Shown here piece by piece: positions 21,768 through 46,800 of a DNA stretch of 64,000 nt. Source of the stretch: an uncultured bacterium (GTDB lineage Bacteria > Verrucomicrobiota > Verrucomicrobiia > Verrucomicrobiales > DEV007). The stretch spans positions 64,001 to 128,000 of the forward strand of contig CAXBMO010000014.1 in NCBI GenBank assembly GCA_963977015.1, written 5' to 3'. Under the pieces are notes generated by a model. The model ran no database searches, was not told the origin of the DNA, and was given only the letters and a program-made list of their open reading frames with translations. Numbering within the stretch: position 1 is the stretch's first letter; each line of letters opens with the position of its first letter. The position numbers and the translations under genes are program-made.

Positions 21768-22803
21768 ACTGGGTTCCGTTTTACGACTGAATTGCGAAGC
21801 GGCAAAGAACAGAAGATCGCGGACTTCTTTCGCAAATTCGGCGTTGCTCGTCAGTTAGTGAGACCGCCTTCCTCCCGTCTTGAACTTGGAAGTAAAAAAA
21901 GGTTCCTCGCGAATTTCATTTCCCAACTTCGTTCTCACAACGCCGGAGAATCACTGGCAGGCGCTGGTGGAAGTGCGTGATCCCGGGAAAAATCCGTTGA
22001 TCGGCGCGCCAGATTCCGACTTTGAAGGTCATGGTTTGGGACTTTCTGTTCGCGCGTTGGCGAATCGAACTGGCGATAGCAAGACTCCTTAGAGTCACTA
22101 AAAATCGTAAAATTGTTAAAAATGGCGCGTTTCCAGTTGCTTTCTTTCGGTGTTTTCCGCTAGAAACGGGGCGATTTCGTCACATTTGGCGTTCTGGATA
22201 CAATCTGCGATGTAGCCGGAGCTCTATCATCTGTGTAGCGATTCGGTTGCAGCGGAGAAATTTGGAACAAACCCCTACAGTCTATTACAGCACTGCCGAA
22301 ACGGCGGATGTTTACACTTCTGTCGAAACTGAGGTTTCGAGGGAGTGGTTTAGCGTGCCTGGGGATAAGGAGGAGCGTTCAACTCTGAATTCGGGGCCCT
22401 CTGGTCGGCCTTTTAAGGCTCAATCTGTCGCGAGATCCCGTTTTGTGCTCTATTCCTGGCATCAGGTTCCAAGGGAGAGGGTTACATTGCGTCGGATTTG
22501 CACGCCTCTGCAGATTCCAGTCGATTTTCGCCTCGGTCGCATTGGTGTTTCTCAGCTGCTGACCAGTTATGTCTGGCTTTTTGGCGGCAATTCTGATCCC
22601 GGCAAGGGACGTTCCAACCTTGGTGCTAGGATTTGCCTTTCGATTTGTTCATGCCTGTTCGGCTCTTTGCGACGCGATGCGTTCGCGGGATCTGGCGGGC
22701 CTTTCTTGTTTTTAGCGAAGATGAGCTCACGTGTCCGGCCCCATTTCGATTCTTATCCAGGGCACCACGGGCTTTCCCCGAAACTTTTTTGCGTTCCCAC
22801 CCC

Positions 22804-25800
22804 ATGACCGACAAGACCCCACCTCAATCTCGTAAGAGTAACCGATCTGAGAATGACGAAGCCCGCAAACGCAGGGACCTTCATTTCGAGCCGTTGGAAG
22901 CGCGGATTCTCTATTCCGCAGCCCCGGTGGATCCTGGTGAGGCCGGTCCCGAAGCGGAGGCGATGCCGACAGCCGCACAGCACGCTGCGCCTGCTTCGGA
23001 AGCTGCGTCCCCCGTAACCGAGGAGGAAAGCTCTGCGCCCGAAACGTCTGTGCTCGATACCGAGGTTGTTGTGCTGGCAGAAGAAAGCGATTCGACTCTC
23101 ATTGGGGATGAGCAGGTGGCGGGCGAGCCGGATGGCAAAGTCGGTTCGTCTTCTGATTCAGCAGGGAACACCCTGACGGCTGAACAGTTGGAGGAGATCG
23201 CCGAGGCGGCAGCCGAACGCTGGCGGATGACAGGGCTGACTGAGGAGCAATCTCTCGCGTTGGCCAACGTCTCTTATCAGATTGCGGATCTGGACGGGAC
23301 CTATCTTGGAGTGGCGGAAGGCAACGTCATTACCGTCGACGTTAACGGGGCGGGAAGGCAGTGGTTCGTCGACGAAACTCCGCTCGAGGACGAGGAATTC
23401 ATCTCGGTGGGGAGTCAGAGCACGGTGCAGGCGGCCGCAACGCCTGAGGCCATCGGCCGGATGGATTTGCTGACGACGCTGATCCACGAGCAGGGACACA
23501 TTCTGGGGCTCTCTCATGACGGCTCCGCGTTGATGGAGGAAACACTAGGAGCAGGCGAACGCAGGGGCTTGACTCCAGGCATCGCAGAAGGCGCCGAGCC
23601 GGATTCGTTGGAAGAGGCGCATTATTTGCAGGCTGAGTCCAATGTGTCCCCGAGCGAACTTTCCGGAATGCAGTTGTTGTACGGCACCGACAGCTTTTCG
23701 AATTTCGACAATGCGCACAATTACGATGTCGACAACTCAGGGAGTATACCGACAGGTTCGTTCGATCGCGTTGCCTATTACCTCGAATTGGATTCCTACT
23801 GGGTGTGGGTGTCGATGGACGCGTTCCAGACCGACCCCGCATTGGTCGGCGTTCCCGCAGACAACAGCGGAATTGTCGAAAACGGAACTGTCGTCACCAA
23901 TCTGGTGATCGAGTCGAATCACCCGAATGTGACTTCACGGGAAATCGACCAGGGGATTCTCGAGTTTTGGGCCAGCAACTACGGTACCAGTGGCGGCGGT
24001 CTGTTCAATTCGAACGATGGTCAGTTTGACTGGAAAGACAGCGGTGGTTCCACAAGCGGCGGACACGGCGCCATGCAGGTGGCGGACATCACTCCAGGAT
24101 CCGAAGAGATGATTTTCTCCATAACCGGCAGTGGCATCGGCATTGGCAACCAGCCAAGCGGTCATCCGGATTGGACCTTCGGCCCGAATTCCTACGGAGT
24201 GCGTAATCTGGAAATTTGGGTCGGCAACGCGAATGAAGCACCGGTGGTGACGGCTGATGCGGGAAGTTTGTCTTACGATACCGTCACGGCGGGAGCCCAG
24301 ACGGTAAATTCGGGGATCACGGTGACGGACGCCAATGATGCGGATCTCACAGGGGCCGTCGTGGCCATTGCCGAAGGACATGTGGCAAGTGAGGACGTGC
24401 TTGATTTTGTGGTTCAGGGAGGCATTTCCGGCAGTTTTGATTCGGTTGCCGGAACCATCACCTTCAGCGGAACGGCATCCGTGGCGGATTATCAGGCGGT
24501 TTTCCGCAGTGTGACTTACGAGAATACCAATAGCGTCGATACCAACACCCAACCTCGGCGCATCAGCTTCACGGTGACCGATTCGGAAGGCGCCATGGGT
24601 TCGGACGACGGCTTCGTCACGTTCGCGAACCCGGTCATCTCGAACACCTATGTTTGGGACAACAACTCGGGTAATTCCGACTGGAGCGACGCCACGAACT
24701 GGGATCAAAACGTCGGTGCGCCAGACACGAGCGGGGAAATCGCCGTCTTTCGTGGCGTCGACGGCGTGGTGGATCTCGGCGGAGCGACGATAACGGCCGG
24801 TGAAGTGCGGTTCGAGCATTCGGGCACTCTGACGCTTACCAATGGCACCCTAATCGCCAATACCATCACGATGACGGGAAGCGGGACGGCGGATTTATTC
24901 GTGGAAATCGATACCCCGACTACGTTCAACCTCACCGGCGGTCAGTTGAATCTCCACAACGAGAACAATGACCTCACCGGCACGGTCAATGCGAGCAATG
25001 GAGCCACGTTCGGCGCCGTCCTGAATGCCACCGGCGGCGCGGCGGGGAATCTCAACGTGAATCTGAATGGAGGTGCGTTCGAGTTTCTGGCCGGAACCGT
25101 TCCGGGCACGTTGAATGGCACGATCACGGCTCTCTCCGACTCCGCGATCAACGTTGCGAGCGGTGCTCAAGATGGGACGATTTCCAATCTGGTTACGGCC
25201 GCGGGAATCACCCTCGGCTCCTCCTCGTTTTCTTCTGGCCAAAAATGGACGGCGGCGAACGTCGAGACTGCGGGCGATCTGAATTTGAGCGGGGACAACG
25301 CGGTCCACGTCGTCTTAGACAACATCGGCGAGACCGCCGCCACGAATCTCAGCTTCGAGGGCAATGGTGTTTTCGAACTGGCCACCTCCAACTCCTACAC
25401 GGGGAATACCACGGTGAACGATGAAGCGTCGCTGGTAGTCGCTCATCTTGGGGCTCTCAGCGGTTCCGGAACGACCGTGAATTCGGGCGGCGCGTTGGTC
25501 CTGACGGTGGACGAACTTGCTGAGAATATCACCATCAACGGAGCTGGTAACTCAAACTACTCCGCTGCGTTGACCGATGACACCGGTTCCTCCATCGATT
25601 TCAATGGAACGATCAACGTGGCCAGTGATGCCACGATTCAATCGCAAAATGGCGGCGAACTCGACCTCAACGGCGCGGTCACAATCGCTTCCGGGCAGAC
25701 CCTGTCGCTCGACGCTGACAGCACCCTGGACTTTGACACCACCATCACTGGCGATGCGTCCACGCAACTGCTCATCACCGGAGGCAGCGGCTATGCCAGA

Positions 25801-28800
25801 ACCTTCCGGAGCAATCCGGATTTCCATGGGACAGTCACGGTTCAGAGTCAGGGCCGATTCGATGTTTATGCCGCGCAAGGCTTTGGCACGGGCGATGTCT
25901 ACGTCACTGGAAACGACGCGAGCGTTTTCGTTCGGAACAATCACACTCACACCAACAACTTCTTCATCGAAGGAGATGGGCGCGGAACGGAAGGTGCAAT
26001 TCGCAGCGAAGGCGGCGACAACACGATTACGGGCATCGTAACCCTCACCGGCGCCACGACGATCTACGTCAACAATTCTACTCTGACCCTGACACAGGGG
26101 CTCCAGGCCGGGGGCAATGTGTTGAGCAAAACCGGCGGTGGTGCGACGAGCCGTTTGAGCCTGGGGGCGGACAGCGTCAATCTCCCGAACATCGATTTGG
26201 TTCACGGCCAGATCCGGGTCAAAACCCCGGGCGGTTTGGGCGGAACATCGACGTTGGACTTGAATGCCGACATGGGGGTCGAGTTCGATTTCGGAGCGAT
26301 CGCGCCGCAGACCTTTTCCAGCACGACGACCTTGCACACGCTGAACGTGAATAACGGGGCCATCGAGGTGATAAGCGGAGAGGTGACTCTCGATTCGACC
26401 TTCACGATCAACCAAAATCTGTTTGGCGACCTGTTCATCGGTGGCGACGGAACTCTCAACGTGGAAACTGGCCTCGGAAACGGCAGCGATGCGATTCTTA
26501 CCGGACTGGACCACTACGGATTCCACGTTAGCAGCGACACTTGGCTCGATTTGGACGGCAATGGCGGGATGATGGGAGGCGGCGATCCCTCGACGTTCAC
26601 GTATTTCAACGGCGCTTCCGTGCTGACGGATGGGCCGGGTTCGCGCGGGCTCGATTTCGACAACGACAACGATTTCATCAACACCGGCTCGATTGGTCAA
26701 TCGGACTATTATTCCAACCTCTGGGTCGGGTATTTCACGCCGGATGCCAGTGGGACCTGGACCTTCCGCGACGCCCGGAACGACGATCGCGGGGGAATTT
26801 GGCTCGATCTCGACCAGGACGGTGTCTTTGAATCCTCTTCCTCGGGACTGGGCTCGGATCGTGGCGAGCAACTCGCCTGGGAAAACACCTCGGCCAAAAC
26901 GGTGAACCTGACGGCTGGCGAAAGCTACTTGGTCGCCTTTACCCATCGGGAAGGGGCCGGTGGTTCCTCGGTGGATTTCCGGTTGAATTACACCGGCACC
27001 GGAACGTCGGCCATTACCGGCGAAGAAGTCGTTAAACCGACCGATCCGGATCAGGCTGGGATGTGGTCGCCCTACCGGCTCACCTCTCCGCAAAACGACA
27101 TCGTCAAAGTGGGTTCCGGAGTCACCACCTTTTCCGTTGCCAACACCTATAATGGCACCACGACCGTCGAGGGTGGGGCGCTCGTCGTGGCTGACCCTGC
27201 TGCGTTGGGGGGAACTGCGGGTAGCATGGTGACCGTGCAGAGCGGCGGGACTCTGGCGTTCGATAACCCCGGCGATTCCACGACCGTGGACCGAGTTTTC
27301 ACCATTAGCGGAACCGGAGCCGCTGGCCAATTGGGGGCGCTGGTGAATTTGGCAGGCGATCACGAAATTACCGGAACGATCACCGGGGTCGGGGGTGAAA
27401 TCGGCATTGGATCCGACGCGGGCACGATCACCATCAACAAAACGATCGATCTGGGATTTGGGAAGCTCATTTTTGATGGCGACGGAGACATCGACGTGTC
27501 CGGAGATATCAGCGGCGATGTTACTCCCGGTTTCACCGCGACGACTCCGAACACCATCAGCGGTCTGGAAGCCTGGTATGACGCCTCGACGTTGAACCTG
27601 AACGACGGTGACGGCGTTACCGCGTGGGCCGACCTTTCCGGCAATGACAGGCATCTCGAAACCTACACCGGAACCCCGACCTTTGAAGCCAACGAGATCG
27701 GCGGACTGCCGGCTGTCCGGTTCGAATCCAACGAAAACCTCCAAATGGTGGCTACCGGCACCGAATATTTCGCCGGAGACGTCTATCTGGTTTTCCGCTC
27801 GGGCAACGGGGCAACTTTCGGTCCCGATTGGGGGGCTCCCATTGGAGTCAAGAATGAAGCCCCCGATGCTGACCGCACCTGGATGTTTCAGGGTGGCGAG
27901 GACCGGTTCTGGAGTAGTGAATTGCCGGCTTCGGTCACCCGAAACGGCGCGGAGATCTCTTCGTCCAACAGTTTTGATTTGGGGAATGTCGACACCAGCG
28001 AATACATGGTGTTGCAAGTCGCAGCCGGGCCGAACAACGGAACTCAGGCCCGCGAATACATTGTGGGCACCCGGACTGACGCTTGGGGCAATTCCCTGTT
28101 CGATACCGCCGAGATCCTCGCCTTCGACCATGCTTTGAGCGATAGCGAGAAGGAGATCGTTCAGGCTTACCTCGCCAGTAAATACTCGATCGGGGGCAGT
28201 TTCACCGGCCTGGGAGCTCCGAACTACTTTTTGGAAACCTGGATCGAAGGCTCTTCCACCGTTTCCAATGACGTGGTCAAACAGGGGAGCGGAACAGTAA
28301 CGCTTTCCGGGAACAACTCCTACGCGGGCGTGACTTCCATTGACGCGGGCACGCTGGCTGTGGACGGATCGATTGGTCTGGGCGCAAGCACGGTCACGAT
28401 CGCCAATGGAGCGACCTTAGGAGGCGGCGGAACCGTCAACGCAGACGTCTCGACGGATTCCGGTGGGGTGAATCCGGGTGGAATCGGCGCGACCGGGAAT
28501 TTGATCATCGACGGTGATTTGAACTTCGGCGCGGGCTCCGCGGCCGATTTTGACGCCGAATTCGACGCGGCGACTGGTGATTCAGTCACGGTGACGGGCT
28601 CGGTCAACCTGACCAACGTGGATTTGAACGCGGCGGCGCTTTCGGGCTATGCACCAACCGATGGCTCGCAGCTGACGTTGATCGACAACCAAGCCGTGGG
28701 CGCGGTCACTGGAACCTTCAACGGGCTGGCCGATGGAGCTGAGATCACCTCGTTGGCCAGCGGTAACGTCAAAGCCTACATCAGCTACTTTGGCGGCGAT

Positions 28801-31800
28801 GGGAACGACGTCACGATTTCGTTCATCGACACCGTCACTCCGGGCACGGTCACGGTGGGTGACGATCCCGCGTTGGACAACAACACCGCGTTTTCCTTCC
28901 AGATTCAGGGTGGCACGCTTCAGGTATTGGCAAATGGCCAGATCGTCGAGTCCCGTCCGCTGGACGCGGTTAAAAATCTCGTGATCAACGGGGATGACGC
29001 CACTCTTGGCAATGAAGGCGATGACGTCCTTACCATCGACTACACGGCGCACCCGGAGCTGCTGAACGTCGACATCACTTTTAACGGCAACGGACAGGCC
29101 ACGGCAGCGGGTGATACCCTCGTCGTGACCGGCGGGACGTTCGGCACGGTGACGCACAACCTCGTCAACGGCACGGACGGCAACCTCCATATCGACGGGG
29201 ACGGCCTTGCGGACATCACCTACACTGGGTTGGAGCCGGTGGACATGACAGGCAGCACCGCGACGGATTTTGTGTTTAACCTGCCGACAGGTGCGGATAA
29301 CGCGCAATTGAGCGACATCGGCGGCGGAGTGTTGCGTTTGGAAAGCACGGATGTCGCGCCGACATTTGAGAGCACCGATTTTGTCTTTCCGAGCGGTTCG
29401 GTCACCATCAACGGCGGCACCGGCGACACGGTAACCGTCTCCAACGCAATCACGATGCAGGGAGACCTCACGATCATCTCGGACACGGTGAACATTGTCG
29501 GCAATGTGGATTTGGGCGACAACACCCTGACCATTGAAAACGCGGTGGACGGCACGGCTTCCGGTGTGCTGAGCGGAGTGGGTAGCGTTGTCAAGCAGGG
29601 AGCAGGGACGTTGATGGTAACCGGGGCCAACACCTACACCGGCCAAACCACGATCGCCGCAGGGGTCTTGAAGTTGAGCGTGGAGCGAGTCGGCAACGTT
29701 AGTTCCGCCTTGGGCGCCGATACTGGGTTAACCGTAGTCCAGGACGGCGGGACCTTGGATATCAATGGAATTTCCGTCGTGGGTGAAACGATTGAGATTG
29801 AGGGAGCGGGCCACAATGGAATCGGAGCGCTGGCGAACTATGGGCCGGCCGATACGAACGCGTTCAACAACGTGACGCTAACCGGAAATGCCACCTTTGG
29901 CAGCGCCAGCATCCGGACAGACATGGTTGGAAGCCTCGACATGGGCGGCTTTACTTTGACGAAGATTGGCGGTGGCCAGCTTTACCTGAAAAACCTCACC
30001 GTCACCAATACGGGCGACATCGACATTCAGAGCGGGCGTGTGGATCTCGAAACGACGACGTCTTTCGACGCGACGATTGATGATACCGTCACGGTTCGCA
30101 GCGGAGCGACCTTGGAATTCAACCGGAACCCGGCCGTTCACGATTTCAGCCTCGTGTTGGAAAACAACAGCACCGTGACGAACCGGACCTACGGTTCGGT
30201 CGACACCACGAGCGAGGTGACCGGCAACGTGACCCTGGTTTCAGGCACGGCGATCATCGCGGTATCAAATACGGGCGGAAACCCCATCACGGTCCTTTCC
30301 GGAGCCATTAGCGGCGCGGGGAGCCTTCGCAAAACCGGACCGAACACCCTGATTCTCAATGGTGACAGCGACTACGACGGCACCACCCAGATCACTGCGG
30401 GCACGGTCGTGGTCAACGGCGACAATTCTGGCGCGGAAGGCGCGGTTTCAGTCTCCAGCGGAGCGACCTTGACGGGAACGGGGACTTTGGGCGGAGTGGT
30501 CACGGCCTTGGCAGGCTCGAACGTCGAACCGGGTGTGGCAGGCGTGGGAACGCTGACGGTAGAGGCGAATATCTCGTTGAGCGGTGATTTGGAAATCGCG
30601 ATATCCGGAGCGAATGCGAGTCAACTTGATGTAGATGGGGATAGCACCACAGGAACGGATGTGACCTTGGGCAGCACGTTGACGCTTGTCGCCACGGGGC
30701 CAACTGCGATGCTCTACACCATTGTCGATAACGACGGCACCTCCGACGCGGTGAGCGGAATTTTCACCGGTTTACCGGAGGGGTTTACGATCGACATCGA
30801 CGGGGTGGATTACAAAATTTTCTACGGTGGCGGCGACGGCAACGACGTGGTTTTGGCGAATGTCACCATGACCCACTCCACGGTCTACGTGGACGACAAT
30901 TGGGCTGCGGGAGGAAGTGAACCGAAGAATAACGGTCAGATCATCGCCGATGCGGACCTGGGAACGGCCGGGGCCGCCGGTCAGGATGCCGTTTTCGGAA
31001 TCAACGCCTTCGCCTCGGTTGCGGATGCCTTCGCGGCAGTGGTCGATGGGGGAACCATCATCATTAACCAAGGCACCTACACCGAGAATCTGAATCTCAC
31101 CAAGAACGTGACCTTTGAGGTGACGGGGCCGGATGTCGCGCAATCAGCGGTGATCAGCGGGCAGGTATCCGGCGCGGGGACCTTGACCAAAACCGGTGAC
31201 GGGACCTTGGTCTTGAGCAACACGGGCAACGACTACTCCGGCACGACCACGATCAACGCAGGCTCGTTGGAAGGCGTTGGTGGCGGCAACTTAGGCACCT
31301 CGAACATCGTGCTTGATGGCGGGGATTTGCGACTGGATGGGGATGCGGTTCCGACGCGTTCGACGTTGTTGCTGGATCAGATTAATGGCGCTAACCCGGG
31401 AGATCCCGCCAATGGTATTTACGATACTTCGGGAGGCAATAATTCCCGGTTGCGCGCGGATGTCGCAAACTCAGGAACGGTCGTTGCCGGCTACGTTGGC
31501 AACTGGGACACCACCTGGACAGAGGACGGGGGGAAAAGTGGTGAAATCACATCCAATGCGCGGACACGGGACGGGAGTTTAACCTATACCGCGACGGGAT
31601 ATTCGCCGGCTTCCGGAGGGGGGCACGTCAACTACTTCAAGAATGTAAACAACAACTACAATCTGGGGCGTGAGTTGAGTTTGGGCGAAGACGACAGCAC
31701 CATTGCCTACTACTTCAGCGTGATGGTGGAAGTGGACAACAATACGGAGAACAACTTTGGCGAGTTTGTTCTCAACTTCAGTTCGGACATCAACAGCACT

Positions 31801-34800
31801 GCTAACAGTGTAAAATTCGGCTTTGATGATGATGCTTCTGGATATCACAGCTACCTTGAAGTGGGAGGAAGCCGGGTGGACGCCAATGACGGGAATTTCA
31901 CGCCCAACACGGACACCTCGAACCGAAACACCCATCTGATCGTGGGCAAAATCGAAGTGAATCGCTCCGGCAACGAGACGGTAACCATGTGGCTGGATCC
32001 CACGGACGTTACGAGCGATACGCAGTTGGATGCCACCACGATCGCAGCCAACAAGCTCACCATTTCCGGCGAAAACATCATTGGGAGTGGCGATACGTTG
32101 AATCAAGTCCGCTTCCAGGCATTTGCCAGCGATGATGGAGGGGGAACGCAGGGGATGTTTTTCGATGAACTGCACATCGAGAACCTTGAGGCGAGCGCGA
32201 CAGCGTCGTGGACGAACAATGTGGAACTGGCAACCGGTTCCAGTTCCTCCATCACGCTCGATGATTTCACCAGCGTGGACACGTTGGGAACGCTCACCAC
32301 GAATGGAGCGGCTACGCTAAGCGTCAACTCCACCACCGGCGCAGGCGCGCTGGAATTCAGTGGAAACTCAACTCTGGGCGGCGATTTGACCGTCGTAACG
32401 AACGATCTGTCGTCGTTGACGCTCAATAATGTGAGCGGTTCGGCGGGCATCATCAAAGACGGCAACGGGACCCTGATTCTGCCTACAACGAACAGCTACA
32501 CCGGGCAAACGACTGTCGATGACGGCCGGATTCAGGTTTCGGCTGACGGAGCTCTCGGAACGACCGCTGCCGGGACCTCGGTGAACAACGGAGGTCAATT
32601 GGTGATTTCCGATACGAATTACGCCACCCTGGAGGCGTTGAGTATCGAAGGCACCGGTCCGAATAGCGATGGGGCTCTCCTCGGCGCCGGAACCTCCACG
32701 TTCGCGGGCGCGGTGACGGTGGCTGGTGATGCTCAGATTCAATCCGACGACGATCTGACCCTAACCGGTGGTATCGACACCGCGGGGAACGAAGTTTTGT
32801 TCCAAGGCGAGGGGAACACCACGATCGACTCCGGGATCGTGACCGGTTTGGGCAGCCTGCGAAAGGACGGCGACGGCGTTTTGACGGTGAACACGGCCAA
32901 CGACTACGCCGGGGCGACCAACATTGATGGCGGGGTTCTCGTCGCGCGGCACGATACCGCTCTGGGAGCAGCTGCTGGCGGCACGTTCGTGGCTGACGGC
33001 GCCCAATTGCGCTTGGAAAACGATATCACCATCGGCGCGGGTGAAGCGATCACGTTGAACGGGCGCGGCACGAACAACAACGGCGCGTTGTTGAATCAAT
33101 CGGGCGCAAACACTGTTCAGGGGTCCGTCGTTTTGGCCACCGATAGTGAGATCGAGGCGAACGACACCCTCAATCTGGAAGGGACTCTGACCCTAACCGG
33201 AAATCTCATTGCCGACGTGAATTCCGGCGACACCATTAACGTAACCGGAATGGTTACCGGTAGCGGCGATATCGAAAAACAGGACGTCGGGATCTTGATT
33301 CTGGCGAACGGGACCAACGATTTCACCGGAGCGCTGGATGTGGACAATGGCAGGGTTCAGGTGACCGCGGACGGAGCTTTGGGCGGGGCCGGCGCCACCA
33401 ACGTGGCCTCGGGCGCCACCCTCGAATTCGCCGGCGCTGTCAACTACACCGCAGCGGAAACCATCAACATCGCGGGAATTGGGGAAAGCGGCTCGGGCGC
33501 GTTGCGCAGTTCGGGCGGTGACACCGCGATCGGCTCAAGCGTGACGATCGACCTGACTGGGGACGCCACCATTAGATCGGTCGGCGGAACTTTGACCATC
33601 GACCCGAATCTCGATCTGGATTTCAATCTGGAGTTGGATGGCACGGGCGACTTCCTCGTCCAGGGCGTCATCAGCGGTATCGCGGGCGCCAGCTTGGAAA
33701 AGGGAGGGAGCGGAACCGCACGGCTGACGGGGACCAACACCTATTTGGGCGATACCGTGGTCGCGGACGGAATCCTGGTTGTGTCGAACAATTCAGCGCT
33801 GGGTTCGCCTGGCGAGGGAACTGTCGTTCGCGATGGGGCCACTCTGGCTTTCGACGACCAGGGAGGCGCCGACCTCACCATCGCGGGTGAGAATTTCACG
33901 ATCATTGGTGACGGCTTCCTCGGAACAGGTGCAATTCGCAACGATCAGGGTGACAACACCCTGACCGGCACGATCGATGTGAAGGTCGACAGCGAGCTGG
34001 GATCGGGGAGCGCGACCATCGCCTCGGACGCCGATACGCTCACGATTGAGGGTGATGTGACATTCACCCAACTGACTTTCAATGGCGACGGCGACACCGT
34101 GGTAAATGGCCAATTGATGAATGGCCTTTCTTCCGAGACCCTGCTTTCGCAGGACTTCGAGAATTTTGGTGGCGGACAGACTGACCCGGGCGACTCCCAG
34201 ATTCTCATCGAAGGTTGGGTCAACGACACCACGGACGATGTGGACTGGGTTTCCGACCAAGCCGGAACCGGCTCGGGGGGAACAGGGCCGAATGTGGACA
34301 ACACGCTGGGTACGAATTCCGGGACCTACATGTATGTTGAAGCCTCCGGTGTTGGTACAGGTGGGAAGACCGCGCGAATGACTTCTCCGGTCATCGACCT
34401 GACGGGTTTTACCGCCGCCCAGCTCGATTTCTTTTATCACATGCATGGTGACACGATCGGGACGCTCTCCGTGCAGGCCAGCACCGACGGGGGAACGAAC
34501 TGGTCGGGCGACTTGTTCAGCCTGACGGGAGAACAGCAGCAGAGTCAGGGGGACCCCTATCAGCAGGCAGTCGTCGACCTGACACCCTACGCTGGCGCCA
34601 ATAACCTACAGCTGCGAGTTACCAACGTCACGGGTTCGAGCTTTACCAGCGACATCGCGGTCGATGATTTTCGTGTGACCGCCTCGACAGGAGCTCCGAC
34701 GATCGGGGAAGTATTGAAAAACGGCACGGGCACCACGACGTTAAGCGGAGACAATTCCTATAGCGGCGCCACCACGGTGGCCGCAGGAACCCTGGTGGTC

Positions 34801-37800
34801 GCAAACAATAATGCACTTGGAACCCTGGCGACTGGAACCACGGTGGCGGCGGGCGCTACGATTGCCTTGGACAATCAGGGCGGCGCAGACCTTTCAATTG
34901 CCGAGGATTTCACCATTCGCGGTGAGGGTGTCCTCGGAACGGGCGCGATTCGCAACGATCAAGGGCAAAACGTCATCACCGGCGATATCACCGTGCCGGA
35001 GGCGCTTACAATGCCAGTAACCACGGGGCTGGAATTGCACCTGGACGCCTCGAATGTCGCCAGTGTGATTGCGGCGGACGGAACGCTGGACGACGGAGAC
35101 CTGATCTCCGGCTGGAACGACTTCCTGGGTGGCGACAATACCGTGGCCAACGACGCAGTTCAGACGGACGCGGCCCAGCAGCCTCGCTGGATCGCCAACG
35201 CGATCAACGGATTGCCCGCGATTCGCTTCGATCCAGATGCTGGAAATAGTTCCACAGACGACGATGACATGCAGATTACCGGGCTCAATCTCGGCAACAA
35301 CGCGTCTTTCTTCTTTGTCCTTCAGGAAGCAGCTCAGGAGCCTGCTTCTGGCAGTGCGCTTCGACCCTTTTTCAGCGGTAGCGGCGATTCCCACTCCGGA
35401 AACGATCACTATGCCTTTACGTTGAGCCGCCCCGACCTCTCGGATCAGTTCCGGATCAACGCGGCCGCCGGAGTATCGACGGCCTATTCGGGCATCGTGA
35501 ATCAGAACGGTGATTTTCACACCTATTCCTATGTTCGCGACGGCGTCGATGGCGAGTTGTTCCGCGACGGAGCCAGCGCGGTGACGCAGTCCGGGCTGAC
35601 CGGGAACGCGACGGATTCCGTCTACTTCATTGGTGGTCAAGATGGTAACGGCGCTCGTCACTACCAGGGTGACATCGCCGAAATCATCGCATTCAACCGC
35701 ACCTTGAGCGCCGTGGAACGGCAGCAGGTCGAGAGTTTCCTGAACGAAAAGTACTTCGGAGCTGGGGCTGCCGGGGGTGCAACGATCGGTGCTGCGGCGG
35801 GAGGCCAGCTGACGATTCAAGGCGGAGTGGAATTTTCCGATCTGACCCTGAACGGGGCCGGAGAGATCGCGGTTGAGGGTGTGATGAGTTCGCAGGTTGG
35901 CGCGGCCGGAACCCTGACCAAGGACGGCACGGGAACGGCCACCTTGAGCGGAGCGAACACCTACGCGGGCGAAACGACGGTTTCTGACGGAATCCTTGTC
36001 GCGGCGAACGACGCCGCTCTCGGCAACACCGGCGCGGGCACGACCGTGGCGGATGGCGCGGTCCTCGCGTTGGACGACACCATCCCAGGCGCGGCGCTCA
36101 CCATCGCGGAAAACATCACCTTGGGCGCGGATGCGGCCAATCCCGGCGTACTGAGAAACGTCGCGGGCGACAACGACGTTGCGGGAGGGGTCTTCGCCGA
36201 ATCGGGAGCGTTGGGCGACATCCGGATTGAATCGGCGAGCGATACCCTGACGATTTCAGGAGACGTCTCGCTCAATCAGGCTGGGATCACCGTAACCGGC
36301 GCAGGCGACACCCAGATCGACGGTCAGATCCTGGCTGGTGTGACGGTGGTCAATACCTATGATACGACTGTTCTGGCGGATAACCCGCTGGTCTACTGGC
36401 GGCTCGGAGATGGCGACCAATCCAACGGCGCCACGGTCGATAATGTCGGAACCCTTGACGCTGCTGGTGACGGCACCTATCTCGATACGGCAGGATCCAT
36501 CATCGAAACGGTGGCCGATCCGGCAATTTCGGGGGGAGACGGCATCGCGATTGAGGGGGATAAAAAGGAAGGTGTGGGACTCGCCTTCAGCGGAGACTTC
36601 CCGGGTACGACGGCGACCTTTGAGGGCTGGTTTCGCGGGGATGACGATCCGCATTCCGGAGGTCAGTATGAACCAGCGTTGTTCTCTTATGAAGGATCTG
36701 GCCCCGGAGGCGGCGGGAATGAGTTCATCGCGTTGTTTTCAGGCAACAATCTCAACATCTTCGGGAACGGGGCCGCATCGTCCACTTCGATCACGAAGGG
36801 AACTCTCTTCAACGGAAACTGGCGGCACCTTGCCATTACCTTCGATTCCACAGCTTCCGGATCTGGTTCCGCCAGCGTCTATCTCGACGGTCAATTTGTT
36901 GAAACCGTTACCAACGCAAATTGGGACGCGGATTTGAGCAGTTCGGGGCAATTCGTGGTGGGATGGGAACAGGACGGAGCTCTCAGCAACGGCAACCAGT
37001 CCTTTCAAGGTTTTGTTGGCGACATGGCCGAGGTCGCCATCTACGGCAGCGTTCTTGGCGCCGCTACCATCCAGAATCACTACGACGAAGGCCTCGTTAC
37101 GCCGGTGGACCCCGCCAACACGCTGACCAAATCCGGCAGCGGCACCCTGACCCTCACCAACGCCAATACCTACGAAGACGGCACTACAGTGAGCGAAGGA
37201 ACCCTGTTGGCCAACAACACCAGCGGTTCGGCGACTGGAACCGGTGGCGTCACCGTGGAAACCAACGGCATTCTGGCCGGAACCGGCTCCGTGGCGGGAA
37301 CGATCAGCGCGAACAGTGGCGGCGAGGTCAATCCGGCTCTGTCGGCTCCGAACGACGTGACCGGCGATCTGGGCTCCGGCGGCGCGAATTTGGCGACCGG
37401 CGGAACCTTCACCGTCCAGATCGAATCCACCACTCCTGACACCGGCTTTGATCAACTGGATGTTGCCGCTGGTGGAACCGTGACCATCAATGGCGCGGCG
37501 CTGGATGTTTCGATTCTGGGAACGCCCGGGTTCGCCGTGGGCGACAAGTTCAAGATTATCGACAATGACGGGGGTTCCCCGGTGACGGTGACCAGTCCGT
37601 TTACGGTTGGCGGTTCGGCCGTGCCGAATGGCAGAGCGTTCGAAGTGACCGACGACAGCGGCGCGGGGAGCACTACCTACGTGTTTTCGATTCTCTACAA
37701 TGTGGACGGGGACGCGGCTGACCCGCGAGGCACCACCGGCAACGACGTGGTCCTCTTCAACTTCGGGGAACCGGAAACCGAGGTTTCCATCAATGGCGAC

Positions 37801-40800
37801 GGTCATTTGGTCATCACCGACATCAACAGCGACTCGAATGATGCGATCACGATTGAGGATGACGGGACCAACTACATCATCCGCGATGCAAACCTGGCAC
37901 TGACCACCACGATTTCAGGAGCTGAACGCGTCGATGGCAATACGATCAAAGTTGCCAAGGCAGACGTCACCGGAGGCGGATTGATCGTCAATACGGCCAA
38001 TGCTGCGGACACGACAGGCGTCAGCGATACGGTTATCATTGGAGGTAGTACCAATCCCGTGAGCTTCACGGGACCTGTGACGTTCAATGCGGAATTCGTC
38101 CGGTTCGACCAGGATCTGGATGCCACCGGCAACACGGTGACCTTCAATGCGGAGGTGACGATGGGCGCCGATGCCGAACTCACAGCGCAGGACGTGGCTT
38201 TCAACCAGGCGGTGACGCTCAGCGACAAGGTTCTGACCGTGAACGTTTCCGGCACGGGAACTGCCAACGCGGTCACGGCGGCAGGCGGTGGGTTGACTAA
38301 AGACGGCGGCGGAACCCTGACGATCACGGGCCAAATCGATGATACCGGCACGGGATTTTCCGGCGTCGTGAATGGCGGCGAACTCAAGGTGCAAAACACC
38401 ACCAACAGCTTGGGCGAGTCCTCCTCCACCTGGACGGTCAATAGCGGTGGGATCCTGGAAGCGGTTGGCAATGGCAGCGTCAGCGGCTTGGGAAGCGCGG
38501 ATGTAACGCTCAATTCCGGCGAACTGGAGTTCGTCATGCCGCCCAACCCGTTTACGGATGCCCCGGGACAGTTGCAGGCGCGCTACTGGGACTACGACGT
38601 GCGGGGATCCCAGGGATCGGGGGGAGTGAGCAATGGTGGAATAGCCGAGTTCGATACGTTGGCCGGTCTGGAAGGGTTGATTGCGACCATGGGGACGCCG
38701 AATTTCGATGTCTTGCTGCAAGGTGACCTCGATTTCCCGGCGGGAGGAGGCAACAACAGCACCAGTGGCAATCCGTTCAGTTCCATCGGCAGCCTCGGCA
38801 ATAACGACACCATGGTGGCGGTCTGGTCAGGGTATGTCCACATCGACCCCGCGGACTACGACGGCAGCCTGACGACCTTCTTCAGCGCGAGCGACGATGG
38901 CACGGTGGTTTACGTGGATGGCAACCTGGTGGTGCAGAACAACCGCTTTCAGGGCGTCACCGAACGCTTCGGCACCTACGATTTGACGCCGGGCGACCAC
39001 GAGATCGTGATCGCATTCTACGAAGGAACCGGCGGGGCCGGGGTGACTGCGAATTGGCAGGGAACGGCCACCGGCGGCGCGAAGACGTTGGTCAATCCGG
39101 CTGCGTTTTCCGGCACGGGTGGAAACAGCTACTTCTTTACCCGCGAATTGCTGGCCAGCCTGGATCCGGATTTCGATCTGACCAACAACGTCACCGTCAG
39201 CGGAAGTTCGACCATCGAGTTGGGCGCGCAAGTGACCAGCGTGACGCTGGATGACCTCACGATGGAGGAGGGTGCCACCTTGACGGTGGAATCCGCCGAC
39301 ATGAATCAGCCGCTGGAATTCGCCAACACCACGCTGAACGGCGCGGCGACCACGACCGCGACGATCGACACCAACATGATGCCGGTCGTGACGCTCAACA
39401 ACCTGAGTGGCGCGGTGGATCTGGACGTGACCGGCGACGGCACGGTGATTCTGCCGACCGACAACTCGGCTGGATTCAGCGGCGAGATTACGGCGAAGAC
39501 GGCAACCACGATCGAGATCACCGTGAACGGTGCCTTGGGCGATACCAGCCAGGGAACTGTCATTGAAGATGGGGCGTCCCTGCGGATGACCGGCGGGTTC
39601 AACTACAGCCTGGCCGAGTCGCTCACCATCAGCGGCGCGGGCAGCCCGAAATCCGATGGCGCCCTCCACAGTGAGACCGGCGACAACGACTTCAGCGGCG
39701 CGATCACGATCGGTTCCGGCACAACGACGATTCGCACCAGCGCCAATTCGTTGGATTTGTTCGGCGGAATCGACACCAACGGCGCCAACGAAGTGCGTTT
39801 CGAGAGTGTGGGGACTACCCGTGTGCAAACTGCAGGAATCCAGGGCGACGGCAGCGTGCGCAAGGAAGACAACGGCACGTTGGAATTCTTCGTCGACAGC
39901 AGCTACACCGGAACCACACTGATCAACAACGGCGTGATTGACATTCGGACCGCGGCGGGACTTGGCACGACGGCGGGATCGACAACGGTGAATGGCAGCG
40001 GCACCCTGCGCTTGCGTGGAGGCATTACCGTGGCGGAGAATCTGACACTGAACAACGGCGATGGAGAGGGCTCCCAGGGCGTGCTCCGCAACGACGCGGA
40101 CGCCAACATTTTGACCGGAACCGTGACCCTGAGCGGCACCCCGCGCATCGATGTGGATGGGGGCACGACCCTGACGATCGAAGGGGCAATCGGTGGAGGC
40201 GGCGATTTCTTCAAGACCGATTCCGGAACCCTTGTGCTGGACAACTCCAGCAACGTCAACACCTACACGGGAACTTCAACGATTGCCGGTGGCACGGTGA
40301 TCATCCAGAAGGATTCCGCGCTGGGAACCGCCGCCGGAGGCACCATCTTGAATGCGGGTACGAGCCTGGAATTCAATCTCGCTGGAGACTACACCGTGGC
40401 GGAATCCCTCACCTTGGGGGAAGGGGCGACGGTCATCAACCGGGGATCGGACACGGATCTGGCTACCACCAGCATCACGCTGCAAGGTGACGCGACGATT
40501 GAATCGGCCACAGCCGGCACAACGTTCAGCACGGCCGCGAACATCGATCTCGGATTTGGCAACCTGACGGTGATTGGGGATGGCGACACCAGTCTGACGG
40601 GCGACATTTCCAACACCGCGTTCGTGAACGACGGCAACGGTAACTTCTTTGCCTCCGGCTTGATTGAGCGGGTTTACGATATTCGCAGTGTGGACGATCC
40701 ATTTGGAGCCACGCAATTGGGGGCCAGTCTGCAGAGCGGTCCGCGGGCCGGCTACACGACGACGAATCAGGGGCCTTGGGCTATTGACACGACAGACGAG

Positions 40801-43800
40801 ACCATCGTCTACACGGGCCAATTCTATGATGCGGACGGCATCTTCTCCTTCGCGGAGAGCATTGATGACGACGTGGCGATTTATATCGCCGGCACGCGTG
40901 TTTTGCGGAATACCTCCGCGAGCGTGGCGACGACCACGGCAACGACTTCCGGGATCAATAACAGCAACGAATCCGGCAACGCCAACCCGGACGGCGGCAC
41001 CTTCGACTTCAGCTCTTTGCCGAATGACAATGGCTGGTATGACATCGAAATCCGTTTTGCCAATGGCGCGGGGGGAGAAGGCGCGGTCTCGCGCGACTCG
41101 TGGACGACTTCCTTCGGATTCGCCTTGGCCAATCCGGCAACCGCGGATGAATTGCCGGGCGTGGATGCCGGTGTGCTGGATGGCTCCGACAAATCGGGCG
41201 TGCACTCTGAATTGACCGGCAACAACCCGGCTTGGCAGACGGCGGATGACCCGGGCGATGGCAGTTTGTTCCGGGTTTCGATGGAGGGCCGCGCCGGAAT
41301 CGTCAAGCAAGGCACCGGCACCCTGCGCCTCGAGGGCGACAGCACCTACCAGGGCCTGACCGATTTGCAGGCCGGCACGATTGAGGTGGCGTCGGCCACG
41401 GCTTTGGGCAGCGCGGATTCCGGAACGGATCTGTCCGATGGCACCACGCTTGCCTTCGATGGCACGTTCACGATTGCCGATGAGCCGATTTTGGTGGGCA
41501 ACAGCACCCTCCACAACCTGGCGGGTGACACCACCATCGCTACCACCATCACCGTGCAAGAGCGCGCAGGCGGGACGTTCACGCTGAGTTCGGATGCGGA
41601 CACGCTGACGATCTCCTCCGACCTGAACCTGAACCGCTCCGATCTGGACGTGACGGGCGATGGCGACGTGACGATTTCCGGGGTCTTGAGCGATGCGGGT
41701 GCGGCGACGGAAAGTGAATACGCGAGCCTTCTCCTCAACGAGGGGACGGACCTGAAAGCCTACTTCCGCCTGAACGAAGCGACCGGCACTTTGGAAGCGT
41801 TCGATTCGAGTTCGTATCGGGTGAATGGCACGTTCCAGGGCGGTGCGGAATCGACTCTGGAGGAGGCCAGTGCACATGCCAATCTGGGAACGGCGCTCGA
41901 TTTTGATGGAAGCAATGACTACATCGAGTTGGGCCAATCACCGGCTGATCTGGGACTGAACGGTCCCTTCACCGTATCCGCCTGGGTCAACGTGGATTCC
42001 TTCAAGCAGGACAACACGATCCTCGGCAACAGCGCAGGATCGTCGAACCAAGGCCTGCACCTGGTGATTCGCAACAGCCGGGCACACTTTGGCTTTTTCG
42101 GCAATGATACGGCCGGTTCGCAGGTGCTGACTGAGAACACCTGGTATCACGTGGTGTGGCGCTTTGACTCCAGCAATGGAGAACAGGCGATCTTCATTGA
42201 TGGGGCGCTGGACAACTCCAGCACCGGGCACGCGGCCTTCGCCGGAACTCAACCCGTCGATATTGGCCGCTGGAGAAACAGCAATTATTTTGATGGCACG
42301 ATGGACGACGTCGCCATCGTGGGCCGCGTCATGGACGACGCGGAAATCGCCGCGCTCTTTGCGGCAGGGCCGAACAACACGACGGTTAGTTACGATGCCG
42401 ATGTTACGAAGTCTGGGGCCGGAACCCTGACATTGTCCGGGGCGAACACCTACGCGGGTCAAACCACGGTTTCGGAAGGAATCTTGAAACTCGACAACGC
42501 CACGGCCTTGGGCACATCGACGGATGCTTCCGATGGCACGGTGGTGGAAGATGGTGGCGCCTTGGATTTGAATGGCGTGGATGTGCCCAACGAGATCGTT
42601 ACGATCAATGGCGACGGCGTTGTTGCCGATCCGGATACCGGTGCCTTGTACAACAGTGCGGGTAGTATGGGCAACAACGGGGTGGATAATCTCGTTTTGG
42701 GCAGCGATGCGTCGATCGGCAGCGATGGCGGGCGGTTTGGACTCAACGGCGGCACGGTATCAGGGGCATTCACCCTGACCAAGGTGGGCAACAACGATGT
42801 GTGGGTCGGTTCCACGGTCACGGTCGCCAACATCATTGTGGAGGATGGTGTCTACGGAATGCAGGGTAACAACGCGGATAATTTGTTGGCTGGCGGCGCG
42901 ATCACGATCAATGCCAATGGCACGCTGGGCACCTGGACGACGAAAACGTTTGATGCCGACATCGTCATGAACGGTGGCCGGATTGATACGGGAGCCCCAG
43001 GAGGGCAAAATAACACCGTAACGTTCAATGGTGATATTACGCTGAACGGGGCCAATAACCGGTTTCATATCGTAAATACGGCGGACGTCATTGCGACGGG
43101 AGTCATCAGCGGGGGCGGCGATTTGGTGAAGTCGGATAGTGGTGATCTTACGCTGACCAATGACAATACCTACGCGGGGACAACGGCCGTTAACACGGGA
43201 TCACTCCTGGTGAATGGATCCCACACGGGCGGTGACAACTACACTGTTGGCTCGACGGCGACGCTGGGGGGCAACGGAACGATCACTCTGCTCGACAACA
43301 GCAAATCCGTCACGGCATCGGGCACGGTGGCGACCGGCGATCCGACTACGGATTCGGGCATCGGCACCCTGACGGTCAACAACGACGTTAACTTGAACGG
43401 CGATTTTGACTTCCAGATCGATGGCGCTACCGCGGATTTGCTGGATGTTGATGGAGGGGTGAATCTGGATGCCGGTTCGACCCTGACGCTTTCCGACATC
43501 AACGATCCGGTCGACGGGTCGACCATCCTGCTGATCGACAACGATGACACCGATGCGGTGAACGGCACTTTCGGCACGGATTCGCGGTCCGGAACCGCAT
43601 TGACGGAAGGCGCAACGGTGACCGATGACGAAGGCGATGCCTATACCATCAGCTACGCCGGTGGCACGGACAGCAACGACGTGGTGCTCTTCGTGGGTGC
43701 GGCGGAGACCGAGGTGTCATTCTCCGGCGGCGTTCTCACCGTGACGGACATCAACAGCGATAGCGGAGATGACCTGACCATCAGCTACGATGCGTTGGCG

Positions 43801-46800
43801 GATGAATACGTCATCTCGGATGCCGCATTGAACCTGACCACGAACGGCCTGACCTCCGCCCAGGTGAAGCGTCCGGACGCCCGGACGGTTCGGGTGGATG
43901 CGGGCATCGTCACTTCGCTGGTGGTCCAGACTGCCAACACATCAGGTGACGGCAGCGACGATTCCGCCGACACGATTGGCATCAACGTTGCGAGCCTTCC
44001 CGCCTACCTCACCGGAGACGTCACGGTCACGGCGGAGACCATTCAATTGGACAGCGGCATCTCGGCCGGTGGTGATGTGACGTTGAATGGATCGACGACT
44101 CTAGGAGCGGCAGCTGCGCTGACTGCCAGCAACGTGAATTTGAACGGGACGATGAGCTTGGGCGCGAACAACCTGACGGTGAACGTCACCGGTGTGGGAG
44201 GGGCTTCAACCGGCGGAATTACCGGAAACGGCCAGCTCATCAAACAAGGCAACGGCACCTTCACGCTGAATGGCACGGGAACCAACAGCAACGGCTACAC
44301 GGGGTTGACGCACGTTCAAGGCGGCACGCTCGCGGTCGGCGGCAGCTTTGCCACGGATGGCGCAATTCAGGGCGACGTCACGATCGATGCCGGGGCGACC
44401 TTCGATTTGACCCAAAGCAACGTGATCGCCAACGGCAGTGACTTCACCATCAACGGCACGCTCGACATGAGCGGGCTGACTGAGGTGCTTGGGAACATTC
44501 AGGGCTCAGGCAGTATCATCAATCATACCAACAATGGCTCCAACGGCCTGACTCTGGATGATCTGAACGGCACCCACACTTTCGCGGGTGATATTTCCGG
44601 CGGCGGTTCGCTCAACATTCGCGGTAACATCGACGACAGCGGAACGCTGGAATTGTCTGGCGGGACGATCAGCCTCGGCAACCTGCGAATTGGCGATGGA
44701 ACGGTGACGATCAAGGATGACGCCACGGTAACCGCATTCAGCCAGACGGTGGTGGGAACGAATCGCACCGAAATTGCGGGGATCACCGCCGCTTCGGTCA
44801 CCGCAAGGCTGAACATCGAGTCCGGCAGTCTCACGACCGGTTCAATCATTACCGGAAACCGGGCTAGCGGCACGGTCACGGCGGTGATTGACCAATCGGG
44901 TGGCACCGTCCGCACCACCGGCAGCGCCGAAGAAGGCAACGGGGTCCGCATGTCCCATTGGGGCAATTCAGACACGACCTACACCCTGTCCAATGGAACG
45001 CTGACGATCGACAACGGGTTTGCCCTGAGCATGGCCACCACCGGCAACGGGCGATTTACCCAAACCGGCGGGACACTGAACACGACCAGCGTGGACGTGA
45101 ATTCCCGGACCGACGCGAACGGGAACGGAACCTTCGAGGTGCTGGGCGGAACCGCCAACATCGGTTCCGGTGGCATCGTGAGCGATTCAACCTCCAATCC
45201 GGGAACGGTCAACCTTGGCGGTCAGGGCGGCACCCTGCGAGCCACCGCGAATTGGGCATCCTCCCTCGATCTGAACTTGCTGGGAACCGGGGTGGACGTC
45301 ATCAACCTGGACACCAACGGGTTTGACGTCGGGCTGTCAGGTGGACTCAACGGAGTTGGCGGCTTTGACAAGCTGGGCGGCGGCACGTTGACCTTGAGCG
45401 GAACCAGCGACTACCAGGGTGATACGGATGTCGTCGCGGGAACTCTCCTCATCAACGGCGAACATTTGGCCGGCACGGTGGTGGCCGATTATCGCGATGA
45501 TTTCAGCACCACTCCGGCGACGGGTTGGCAGTATCTCTGGAATTCGGGCGGAGACGTTTCCGATCCGGCCAACTACACCGCGTTAGAGGTGGAGAACGAC
45601 CACTGGGAAACGGTGGCGAACGGCAGCTTTCCGGATCCAGCGCCGGGTTCGTATCTCAACCTCACCGGCACCAGCGGCCATCCAGGTTCCACGGACGTTT
45701 ACGCGATTGCCGCCTTTACCGTTCCGACAGCCGGCGATTATGCCATTACCAGCAGCTTCCTGGATCCGGTTACCGGAGCTGGTGACGGGAACGATGTCCG
45801 GATTTTCGTGAAGTCCGGGGCGGTGACGACGGAAGTCTTCTCCACCGCGACCGACGATGCCGTGATTGACTTCGACACGGCGCTGGGAACGCTTGGGGCT
45901 GGAGACGTCATCTATGTGGCGACCGGAACGGACGGTCTTGGTGCGGGCAACGATCCTGGCAATGACAGTTTCAACTGGGACTTCTCCATCTTGAGCCAGG
46001 CCACGAGCACGATCACGGTTCAGAGCGGTGCAACGCTCGGTGGGACAGGAAGTACCAATTCGGCGGTGAACGCGGCCGGAACGTTGAGCGCCGGTTCCCC
46101 GGTTAGCGGAATCGATTCTTTGGAAACTGGGAACCTGGATATAACGGGGACCCTGGAAGTGCAACTCAATGGGAACACCAGCGCGGATTTGATCGATGTG
46201 ACCGGGCCCGTCAATTTGGGTGGCGCCTCGATTCTGACGGTGTCTGGACTCGCACCTGCGAATGGTGCGACGATCACGATCATCGAGAACGATGGGACCG
46301 ATTTAGTGACCGGTCGTTTTACTTCCGACGGCTTCACCGTTTTGGAGGAGAGCGATATCGTCACGGTTGGCGGCGACCGCTACATCATCAGCTACGTGGG
46401 CGGGGATGGGAACGACGTGGTTCTGTTCAAGGGAGTGCCTGAAACGCAGGTTCATCTTGATGCTTCGGGCAATCTGACGATCAGCGATATTGAGAGCGAT
46501 AGCGCGGACTCGCTCACCATCACCTTCGACTCTTCAACCAATGAGTATGTCATCTCTGATGCGAATTTGAATTTGAGCGCAACAGGGTTTGATCGGGCCG
46601 ACGTTTCTCGCCCGGATGCGAAAACCGTGAGAGTGGCGGCGACTGCAGTCACGGGGAATGTGTTTGTGAACACGGCGTTCGGATCCGATTCGCAAACAGA
46701 CACGGTCACGATTGGAGGTGTGGATGCCTTGACTTTTTCGGGTGCGATCGAGATCACCGCAGAGTCGATTCTGATCGCAGGAACGGTGGTGGCCAATGGC

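Follow-up and report, generated by a model that had tools for sequence, protein, structure and literature searches.

Known beta-helix and fibrillar systems

Beta-helices built from PATR, the autotransporter-associated beta strand repeat (original paper: Doyle et al. 2015), are usually seen as plain stalks or secretion aids. Here we analyse giant protein 1, a PATR protein of 8,966 amino acids (aa) from a marine Verrucomicrobiales bacterium; the window, that is the whole 64,000-nt stretch of DNA analysed, corresponds to C14:64001-128000 (contig C14) in a 6.9-Mb assembly. Ten domains break the repeat array of this protein at four positions, and an earlier note, made from the DNA letters, had read most of them as cargo plugged into recurring sockets of a beta-helix stalk. 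While the PATR and LEPR-XLL families are known, lectin-type domains apparently nested at fixed turns of the repeat are an undescribed yet family-wide architecture: a full-text literature search returned no description of stereotyped domain insertion in PATR repeats, and the name LEPR-XLL was merely mentioned in what it found.

Autotransporter beta-helices can bear protruding subdomains and loops, and the SPATEs (Hbp, Pet and EspP) resemble giant protein 1 in having a right-handed beta-helix stalk from which such parts, e.g. d2-d4, project sideways (PMC9289746 and PMC9977779). However, d2-d4 are small, one-off features of a protein that ends in a beta-barrel, whereas the domains of giant protein 1 comprise 177-290 aa and recur at set points of a regular 137-aa super-repeat. 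Pfam searches found no S6 protease in it, and a PF03797 barrel is absent from both halves and from the final 967 aa at E <= 0.01. Giant protein 1 hence lacks the C-terminal PF03797 of a type Va autotransporter; some of the search hits do carry this domain. The PATR autotransporter adhesins ShdA, MisL and BmaC share the PATR/TIGR02601 repeat, but giant protein 1 reaches 27.6 bits against the ShdA model, far below its cut-off, and it differs from these adhesins in the missing barrel, the LEPR-XLL leader, a 5-10x larger size and the many nested domains. The leader is also what it has in common with the LEPR-XLL giants ('LEPR-8K', NF012209), a family defined by the leader only.

Fibrillar and RTX-type giant adhesins likewise combine a long stalk with lectin-type binding domains. 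In these proteins the stalk is a tandem, bead-like array and the adhesive domains are serial and mostly at the tip, whereas giant protein 1 appears to form a single solenoid with domains nested along it. PA14 is described as a promiscuous adhesive domain of fibrillar adhesins that is joined to many stalk types (PMC8286594). For Omnitrophota, a preprint on giant genes (10.1101/2023.11.21.568195) discusses long beta-helices and roles in adhesion.

The PATR super-repeat of giant protein 1

The gene is a single unbroken open reading frame (ORF).

22633..49533 (+): ORF of giant protein 1, 8,966 aa, probable ATG at 22801

PF12951 (PATR) scores 184.1 bits (11 stretches) and 136.1 bits (8 stretches) in the two halves of the protein, against a cut-off of 27, and the NCBIfam model TIGR02601 reaches 70.2 (cut-off 19.85) on aa 3275-3689. 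The 30-32-aa motif is therefore over the curated score, and giant protein 1 belongs to the PATR family. The anchor K.G.G...N.Y.G.T of the PATR head identifies 23 heads, and the body consists of a super-repeat of about 137 aa whose insert-free units span 117-144 aa. We described it by a 137-position hidden Markov model (HMM), built from six insert-free units only and later widened with 54 uninterrupted units of paralogs and relatives. The uninterrupted units referred to below are as follows.

27106..27522 (+): canonical unit u1492, HMM positions 1-134
32455..33699 (+): three consecutive insert-free canonical units (136, 138 and 141 aa; aa 3275-3689), by direct reading and HMM
33700..34125 (+): unit u3690, HMM positions 1-133; predicted local distance difference test (pLDDT) 86-98 in the structure model
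35920..36339 (+): unit u4430, by the unit HMM
40213..40617 (+): unit u5861, by the unit HMM
41305..41700 (+): unit u6225, by the unit HMM

Five 'cassette-end' modules ('...Y.ISY.GGDGNDVVL' followed by 'ETEV..G.L.ITDINSDS') were also observed, at aa 1995-2320, 2680-2850, 4960-5220, 6950-7200 and 7870-8030. They split giant protein 1 into five passenger-like blocks and cluster with similar modules in every paralog.

Ten inserts at four positions of the repeat

Ten inserts of 177-290 aa break the repeat array, at about 20 nt or closer to where the earlier note had placed its globular domains. They are rich in aromatic residues, with F, W and Y together making up 8.1-12.0% of their residues against 1.4-4.2% in four helix units. 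C85, named in the rows below, is a giant ORF on the contig of that name in a relative of the same genus (genome G002).

26506..27105 (+): I1, PA14/GLEYA-like, site S1; PA14 23.9 bits (below 24), GLEYA 25.5 bits (below 26.2); 10 homologues in giant ORFs
27523..28278 (+): I2, LamG/ConA-like, S1; no Pfam match, assigned solely via I5 (BLASTP E 5e-8)
31342..32211 (+): I3, 290 aa, no assigned fold, S2; 70% identical copy in C85
34126..34716 (+): I4, MAM, S1; PF00629 72.2 bits; PDB MAM chains 1.3e-14; Foldseek matches 8yt7, 5l73 and meprin
35002..35769 (+): I5, LamG, S3, splits unit u4029; Laminin_G_3 32.1 bits; Foldseek matches to ConA-like lectin domains
36340..37128 (+): I6, LamG/pentraxin-like, S1; Laminin_G_3 60.1 bits
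38536..39180 (+): I7, PA14-like, S2; PA14 21.5 bits against 24; I1 versus I7 E 0.003
40618..41304 (+): I8, weakly PA14-like, no assigned fold, S1; no family, linked to I7 only (E 0.047)
41701..42408 (+): I9, LamG, S1; Laminin_G_3 84.8 bits
45478..46008 (+): I10, 177 aa, no assigned fold, S4; sister units without insert; copy in C85; not itemised in the earlier note

The inserts occupy four sites: S1, in the turn before the PATR head (n=6); S2, at about HMM position 55 (n=2); S3, at about 95-100 (n=1); and S4, at about 35 (n=1). All six S1 inserts (I1, I2, I4, I6, I8 and I9) have, on direct reading, GxGxxxxxxx[IL] before and KxGxGxxxxxxx[NS]xY after the domain, in agreement with the motif pair proposed earlier, including its extension to the domain near 40620-41285. 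The unit HMM ends at positions 130-134 before I2, I4, I6, I8 and I9 and resumes at position 1 after each; upstream of I1 the unit is degenerate, and the S1 motifs fit. S1 is thus a turn of 2-4 residues between 'G.ISG' and 'xLxK' at the end of the unit, and insert-free junctions bear the same two motifs only a few residues apart. In the phasing of Pfam this turn is the K-to-K unit boundary, so that for six of the ten inserts it depends on the chosen repeat phase whether a domain 'interrupts' a unit or 'sits between' two.

The four remaining inserts (I3, I5, I7 and I10) are the only ones that demonstrably split units by sequence. The previous claim that the domains interrupt units rather than sit between them hence stands for these four, while the six S1 inserts lie at the unit boundary. 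The segments that belong to the split units, with an insert-free sister of the S2 unit, are given here.

24940..25329 (+): insert-free sister of the S2 unit, head joined directly to a TNNV-type tail, by tail-module match
31189..31341 (+): head of S2 unit u2853, by direct reading
32212..32454 (+): TNNV tail of u2853, by tail-module match
34717..35001 (+): first part of unit u4029, HMM positions 1 to about 100, by alignment A6
35770..35919 (+): remainder of u4029, by A6
38299..38535 (+): head of S2 unit u5223, by direct reading and unit HMM
39181..39429 (+): TNNV tail of u5223, by tail-module match
45370..45477 (+): head of unit u7580 up to S4, HMM 2-30, resuming at 36

Both S2 inserts (I3 and I7) have LGxxxxxLxxGxLxx before them, at about HMM 55, and a common TNNV tail of about 80 aa after them, as had been noted. 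The tail module also occurs insert-free at aa 770-899 of giant protein 1 (tail hit aa 828-899, E 3.5e-21). At S3, 19 of 19 insert-free two-unit rows of A6, which stem from several genomes, are gapped over the entire I5, bearing out the view that the insert near 35005-35760 splits a unit whose sister near 33960 is uninterrupted; a LamG domain occupies S3 in all three insert-bearing rows (giant protein 1 and the giant ORFs C85 and C61 of G002). S4 cuts 'NG.H.AGT |.ITVQSGATLGG' at about HMM 35, where four sister units of giant protein 1 carry no insert, and C85 possesses a domain 63% identical to I10 at the matching site.

Identity of the inserted domains

Four of the ten inserts score above a curated Pfam cut-off, namely I4 as MAM and I5, I6 and I9 as Laminin_G_3 (cut-offs: MAM PF00629 26.4, Laminin_G_3 PF13385 27.6, PA14 PF07691 24, GLEYA 26.2), and a search with the whole ORF also shows one MAM, Laminin_G_3 and weak PA14/GLEYA. 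Foldseek on the structure model matches I4 to 8yt7 (E 1.8e-6, target TM 0.59), and the MAM profile places I4 in that family. For the I5 model, Foldseek matched ConA-like lectin domains of trans-sialidases, AbnA domain 4, PilC and the lectin-like subdomain of clostridial binding domains, and no homologue of 140-448 aa was found for I5 alone. In sum the cargo includes one MAM, four LamG/ConA-like and two to three PA14-like domains, and two without an assigned fold. I6 and I9 are related (E 2e-4) and represent distant paralogs, as do I2 and I5.

No Pfam family was found for I2, I3, I8 and I10, the best match of these four in a PDB sequence search is only at E 0.24, and NCBIfam gave no match for I1, I2, I3, I8 and I10. 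An Atlas search returned unconfirmed leads, for I3 to DUF6645, DUF6772 and a polysaccharide-lyase-like family (0.90-0.94) and for I10 at <= 0.83. The domain identities in the earlier note accordingly stand above cut-off for the MAM of I4 and the LamG of I6 and I9; I2 is LamG through I5 only, I1 is a sub-threshold PA14-like domain and I8 a weak one. The fold families suggest that these domains may bind glycans, as in the 'combinatorial array' proposed before.

Giant ORFs contain twenty MAM copies (in giant protein 2 (L027), a paralogous LEPR-XLL/PATR giant of the same window, in the C3 paralogs and in G002:C61, G001:C22 and G005:C46 of relatives), mostly as tandem arrays apart from PATR units. 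PATR units stand on both sides of two copies only, I4 and the one at aa 4205-4401 of C3; a third C3 copy (aa 5861-6039) is preceded by a unit end and not followed by a unit.

Recurrence of the insertion sites in other proteins

Among 183 ORFs, proteins and loci with unit hits (giant ORFs and database PATR proteins), units adjoin directly at 406 junctions, and a further 127 gaps measure 150-420 aa, 74 of them aromatic-rich. Of these 74, 33 follow a unit that ends at HMM position 126 or later (26 at 131-134) and seven lie at 54-56; the others are scattered, in part because local alignments were truncated. Another 126 proteins yielded 97 aromatic-rich gaps, 42 of them at position 126 or later (32 at 131-134), in 22 proteins, but this second set was picked by similarity to a unit-LamG-unit query in an exhaustive search and is therefore biased to that layout. 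An unbroken alignment through unit and LamG was obtained there for 12 of the 150 best representatives.

Loci titled Pirellulaceae and Chthoniobacterales have S1 inserts too, as does the Bosea autotransporter P0061. The same insertion points in paralogs and in PATR proteins of Planctomycetota and Proteobacteria imply that the sockets are a property of the PATR repeat family and not of this gene. Moreover, the same cargo families occur at different sites: a C6 paralog has a PA14-like domain in S2 that is 56% identical to I1, itself in S1, and the I2/I5 LamG family is found in both S1 and S3. These distributions suggest independent insertion of cargo over longer times.

Cassette variation among close relatives

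The region of aa 3549-4960 was compared with C85, with P0122 (7,889 aa, from a Verrucomicrobiales metagenome-assembled genome) and with C3p, a paralog on contig C3. In the arrangements below, A, A', B, B' and C are successive units and a point marks cargo attached at S1; slashes separate the units.

Giant protein 1: A / B.MAM / B'(I5) / C.I6
C85: A / A'.PA14L / B'(I5L) / C.I6L
P0122: A / A'.PA14L / B.MAM / C.I6L; 75% identical over the first 1,900 aa
C3p: B.MAM / C.I6L

Between giant protein 1 and C85 the flanks are collinear (67% and 54% identical), and a PA14-like domain, 42% identical to I1 and without match to MAM, stands in place of the MAM. We rejected an in-place swap of cargo as the reading of this difference, because P0122 shows presence and absence of whole unit-plus-cargo cassettes. 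The C85 unit and its PA14-like domain match A'.PA14L of P0122 at 75% and 65%. Compared segment by segment, giant protein 1 is a mosaic: the pre-MAM unit, the MAM and I6 are 66-74% identical to the C3 paralog and 43-44% identical to C85 or missing there. Cassette-partner units pair at 53-75% identity. A'.PA14L is missing from giant protein 1, B.MAM from C85, and the I5-bearing unit from P0122 and the C3 paralog. With P0122 as the third comparator, the differences are thus gain or loss of whole cassettes rather than one cargo taking the place of another in the same socket. Such a pattern is consistent with unequal recombination or conversion in which the repeat provides the homology.

The idea of a display scaffold with exchangeable side branches is therefore retained in one part and changed in another: the domains do sit at recurring fixed points, but close relatives vary by whole cassettes. 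The one MAM/PA14 difference that resembled a swap belongs to the latter kind; over longer times, the same cargo families are found in different sockets.

Structure models

AlphaFold2 was run on single-socket, hand-checked alignments (A5 and A6). Alignments in which whole PATR proteins or domain-only LamG rows were mixed with the query had been dropped, as MAFFT set helix residues under the cargo columns. The model of aa 3690-4123 (434 aa; a unit, the MAM and the start of the next unit) has a pLDDT of 87.9 and a predicted template modelling score (pTM) of 0.80, with helix blocks of 86-98 and 88-98 beside the MAM, and that of aa 4029-4569 (541 aa; the I5-split unit and the next unit) a pLDDT of 80.2 and a pTM of 0.76, with helix at 86-98. 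Since even the smallest part accounts for 22% of the first chain and 18% of the second, pTM values of 0.80 and 0.76 need all parts in one frame. By DSSP the first MAM strand begins 2-3 residues after the last helix strand and 3-4 residues separate the end of the last MAM strand from the 'xLxK' strand. Helix, domain and helix are thus predicted as one confident rigid body, which argues against flexible beads, and the pTM, the pLDDT and the very short linkers suggest that the helix is continuous across the inserts.

Proposed architecture and alternative explanations

The best explanation, and in our judgement a probable one, is a beta-helix rod with nested domains that varies by cassettes and likely serves as a multivalent binding fibre. 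The rod would be a right-handed beta-helix of the ~137-aa super-repeat, which opens with the PATR motif, and ten jelly-roll or lectin-type domains would be nested in its turns at the four fixed positions, projecting sideways while the rod continues. The repeat would supply the homology for unequal recombination and gene conversion, and relatives and paralogs would in this way come to differ by unit-plus-cargo cassettes. Presumably exposed at the cell surface, the fibre would then likely bind glycans or other surface ligands. More tentatively, and possible rather than probable, the PATR super-repeat may be a natural display scaffold on which at least 11 paralogous LEPR-XLL giants shuffle unit-plus-lectin cassettes through recombination inside the repeats; like a cassette-based variation system, this would diversify a multivalent glycan-binding fibre between strains for the capture of environmental ligands.

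Several points weigh against the nested-domain rod. The PA14 assignments of I1 and I7 are under the Pfam cut-off, I3, I8 and I10 are without an assigned fold, and the analysis of giant protein 1 obtained no evidence of a signal peptide, anchor, barrel or ligand. S1 coincides with the HMM boundary, where domains between units would score as well, so that sequence alone cannot tell a nested from a between-module position. Among the models, the I5 domain is poorly predicted (pLDDT 33-90), and the 19 insert-free two-unit rows in both AlphaFold alignments may bias the model to a continuous helix. Foldseek aligns the helix halves to the beta-helices of the phage tailspikes K2-2 and CBA120 over 398-425 columns, but with TMq of 0.23-0.25 and a root-mean-square deviation of ~14 A, which decides nothing on continuity; these tailspikes have no sequence relation to giant protein 1, which is without trimerisation or enzyme features. 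The anatomy, the recurring sites, the cassette variation and the predicted rigid body are thus results of the analysis, and the continuity of the helix is inferred from pTM, pLDDT and linker length.

A string of beads, in which linkers connect globular domains with short, separate stretches of beta-helix and the sockets are simply the ends of helix modules, would account for the position of six of the ten inserts exactly at the K-to-K boundary and for the tandem MAM arrays that stand apart from PATR units elsewhere among the giants of this genome and of relatives. Four inserts, however, split units of which both halves match the canonical repeat, the S1 flanks retain the motifs of uninterrupted junctions, and linkers of 2-4 residues, pTM values of 0.80 and 0.76 and junction pLDDT of 88-98 speak for one body; we regard such a string as very unlikely. 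The earlier note had counted a helix that ends and restarts at each domain as evidence against its proposal; what the models give is a single rigid body in which the helix is confidently predicted before and after the domain, which suggests continuity. It is also improbable, though slightly less so, that the arrangement is a by-product of descent, in which one ancestral unit-plus-domain cassette was duplicated and diverged with neither a permissive socket nor exchange. This would agree with the variation of giant protein 1, C85, P0122 and the C3 paralog by whole cassettes and with the distant paralogy of I6/I9 and I2/I5, but at least three unrelated folds (MAM, LamG and PA14-like) share S1, S1 shares the PA14-like family with S2 and the I2/I5 family with S3, and S1 inserts appear in PATR proteins of other phyla amid hundreds of uninterrupted junctions.

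The last alternative concerns the role: the protein may not chiefly be an adhesin but a secreted enzyme or protease carrier, or a structural fibre of envelope or matrix, with the jelly-rolls used for self-assembly or substrate targeting. A borderline matrixin-like HExxH region is N-terminal in both giants, LamG/ConA-like folds occur also in sialidases, arabinanases and toxin binding domains, and no anchor domain was found in giant protein 1. On the other hand, Pfam detected no catalytic domain above cut-off across the 8,966 aa, and binding is what MAM, PA14 and LamG modules mostly do, PA14 being a common adhesive domain of fibrillar adhesins (PMC8286594); we consider this role unlikely.

If it is true that the PATR repeat has defined permissive turns which accept lectin folds of 200-300 aa with the solenoid unbroken, this would explain very large multivalent binding fibres of PVC-group bacteria. 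It would also provide a parsing rule for thousands of annotation fragments named "autotransporter-associated beta strand" or "LamG-like jellyroll", and point protein engineers to natural sites of insertion in a beta-solenoid that evolution has already tested. Through the gain and loss of cassettes between close relatives, the giant genes become candidate markers of strain-level niche differences.

The LEPR-XLL leader and possible export

By its sequence, giant protein 1 is a LEPR-XLL/PATR beta-helix giant of apparently secreted type. Two features of its N-terminal part are listed here.

22879..22932 (+): LEPR-XLL motif LHFEPLEARILYSAAPV; NF012209, 19.9 bits against a cut-off of 17
23380..23550 (+): matrixin-like HExxHxxGxxH stretch, borderline; PF00413, 22.1 bits against a cut-off of 24

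The NF012209 score of giant protein 1 is above the curated NCBIfam cut-off, and giant protein 2 reaches 26.2 bits. A motif scan of the genome found LEPR-XLL on 11 ORFs, each of 2,361-12,571 aa, on contigs C2, C3, C6, C12, C14, C23 and C37. The leader follows the pattern 'L.[LF]E.LE.R[IL]LYSAAPV' about 25-35 aa past a K/R-rich start and looks like a dedicated export tag for giant proteins. The matrixin-like stretch lies ~200 aa from the start in both giants, in giant protein 2 at the matching relative place (~50800-50950; 28.3 bits, cut-off 24), and may act as a protease or in self-processing. Searches of giant protein 1 with Pfam and NCBIfam gave no match to an anchor family.

Besides the canonical SecA, the genome encodes three short SecA-like proteins of 663-795 aa (C3:48376, C11:107206 and C12:120299), none of them inside the window. 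An export route via these genes is a lead; the available part of PMC4452313 (2015), on a module of short SecA and HlyD, leaves giant substrates unmentioned. The short SecA-like gene of C12 lies ~12 kb from a LEPR-bearing ORF of 8,882 aa.

Neighbouring genes and metagenome contigs

The other genes of the window considered here are the following.

50220..63998 in the window (+): giant protein 2, 12,571 aa in the genome
20436-21767 (+): OprB-family carbohydrate-selective porin gene (137 bits), immediately 5' of the gene for giant protein 1 and on the same strand
2214-9687 (-): CusA/CusB/OEP heavy-metal efflux operon (ACR_tran 595 bits, HlyD_D23 and HMBD domains, OEP), apparently unrelated to the giants

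In the metagenome run X1 one contig of 1,386 nt spans the junction from helix to MAM at 34126, and the junction from MAM to helix at 34716 is not spanned by the metagenome contigs compared with the window. Contigs of run X4, from a marine metagenome, part from the window at 32924, 34473 and 34535 with loose ends, and they could stem from paralogs or from strains in which the cassette array differs.

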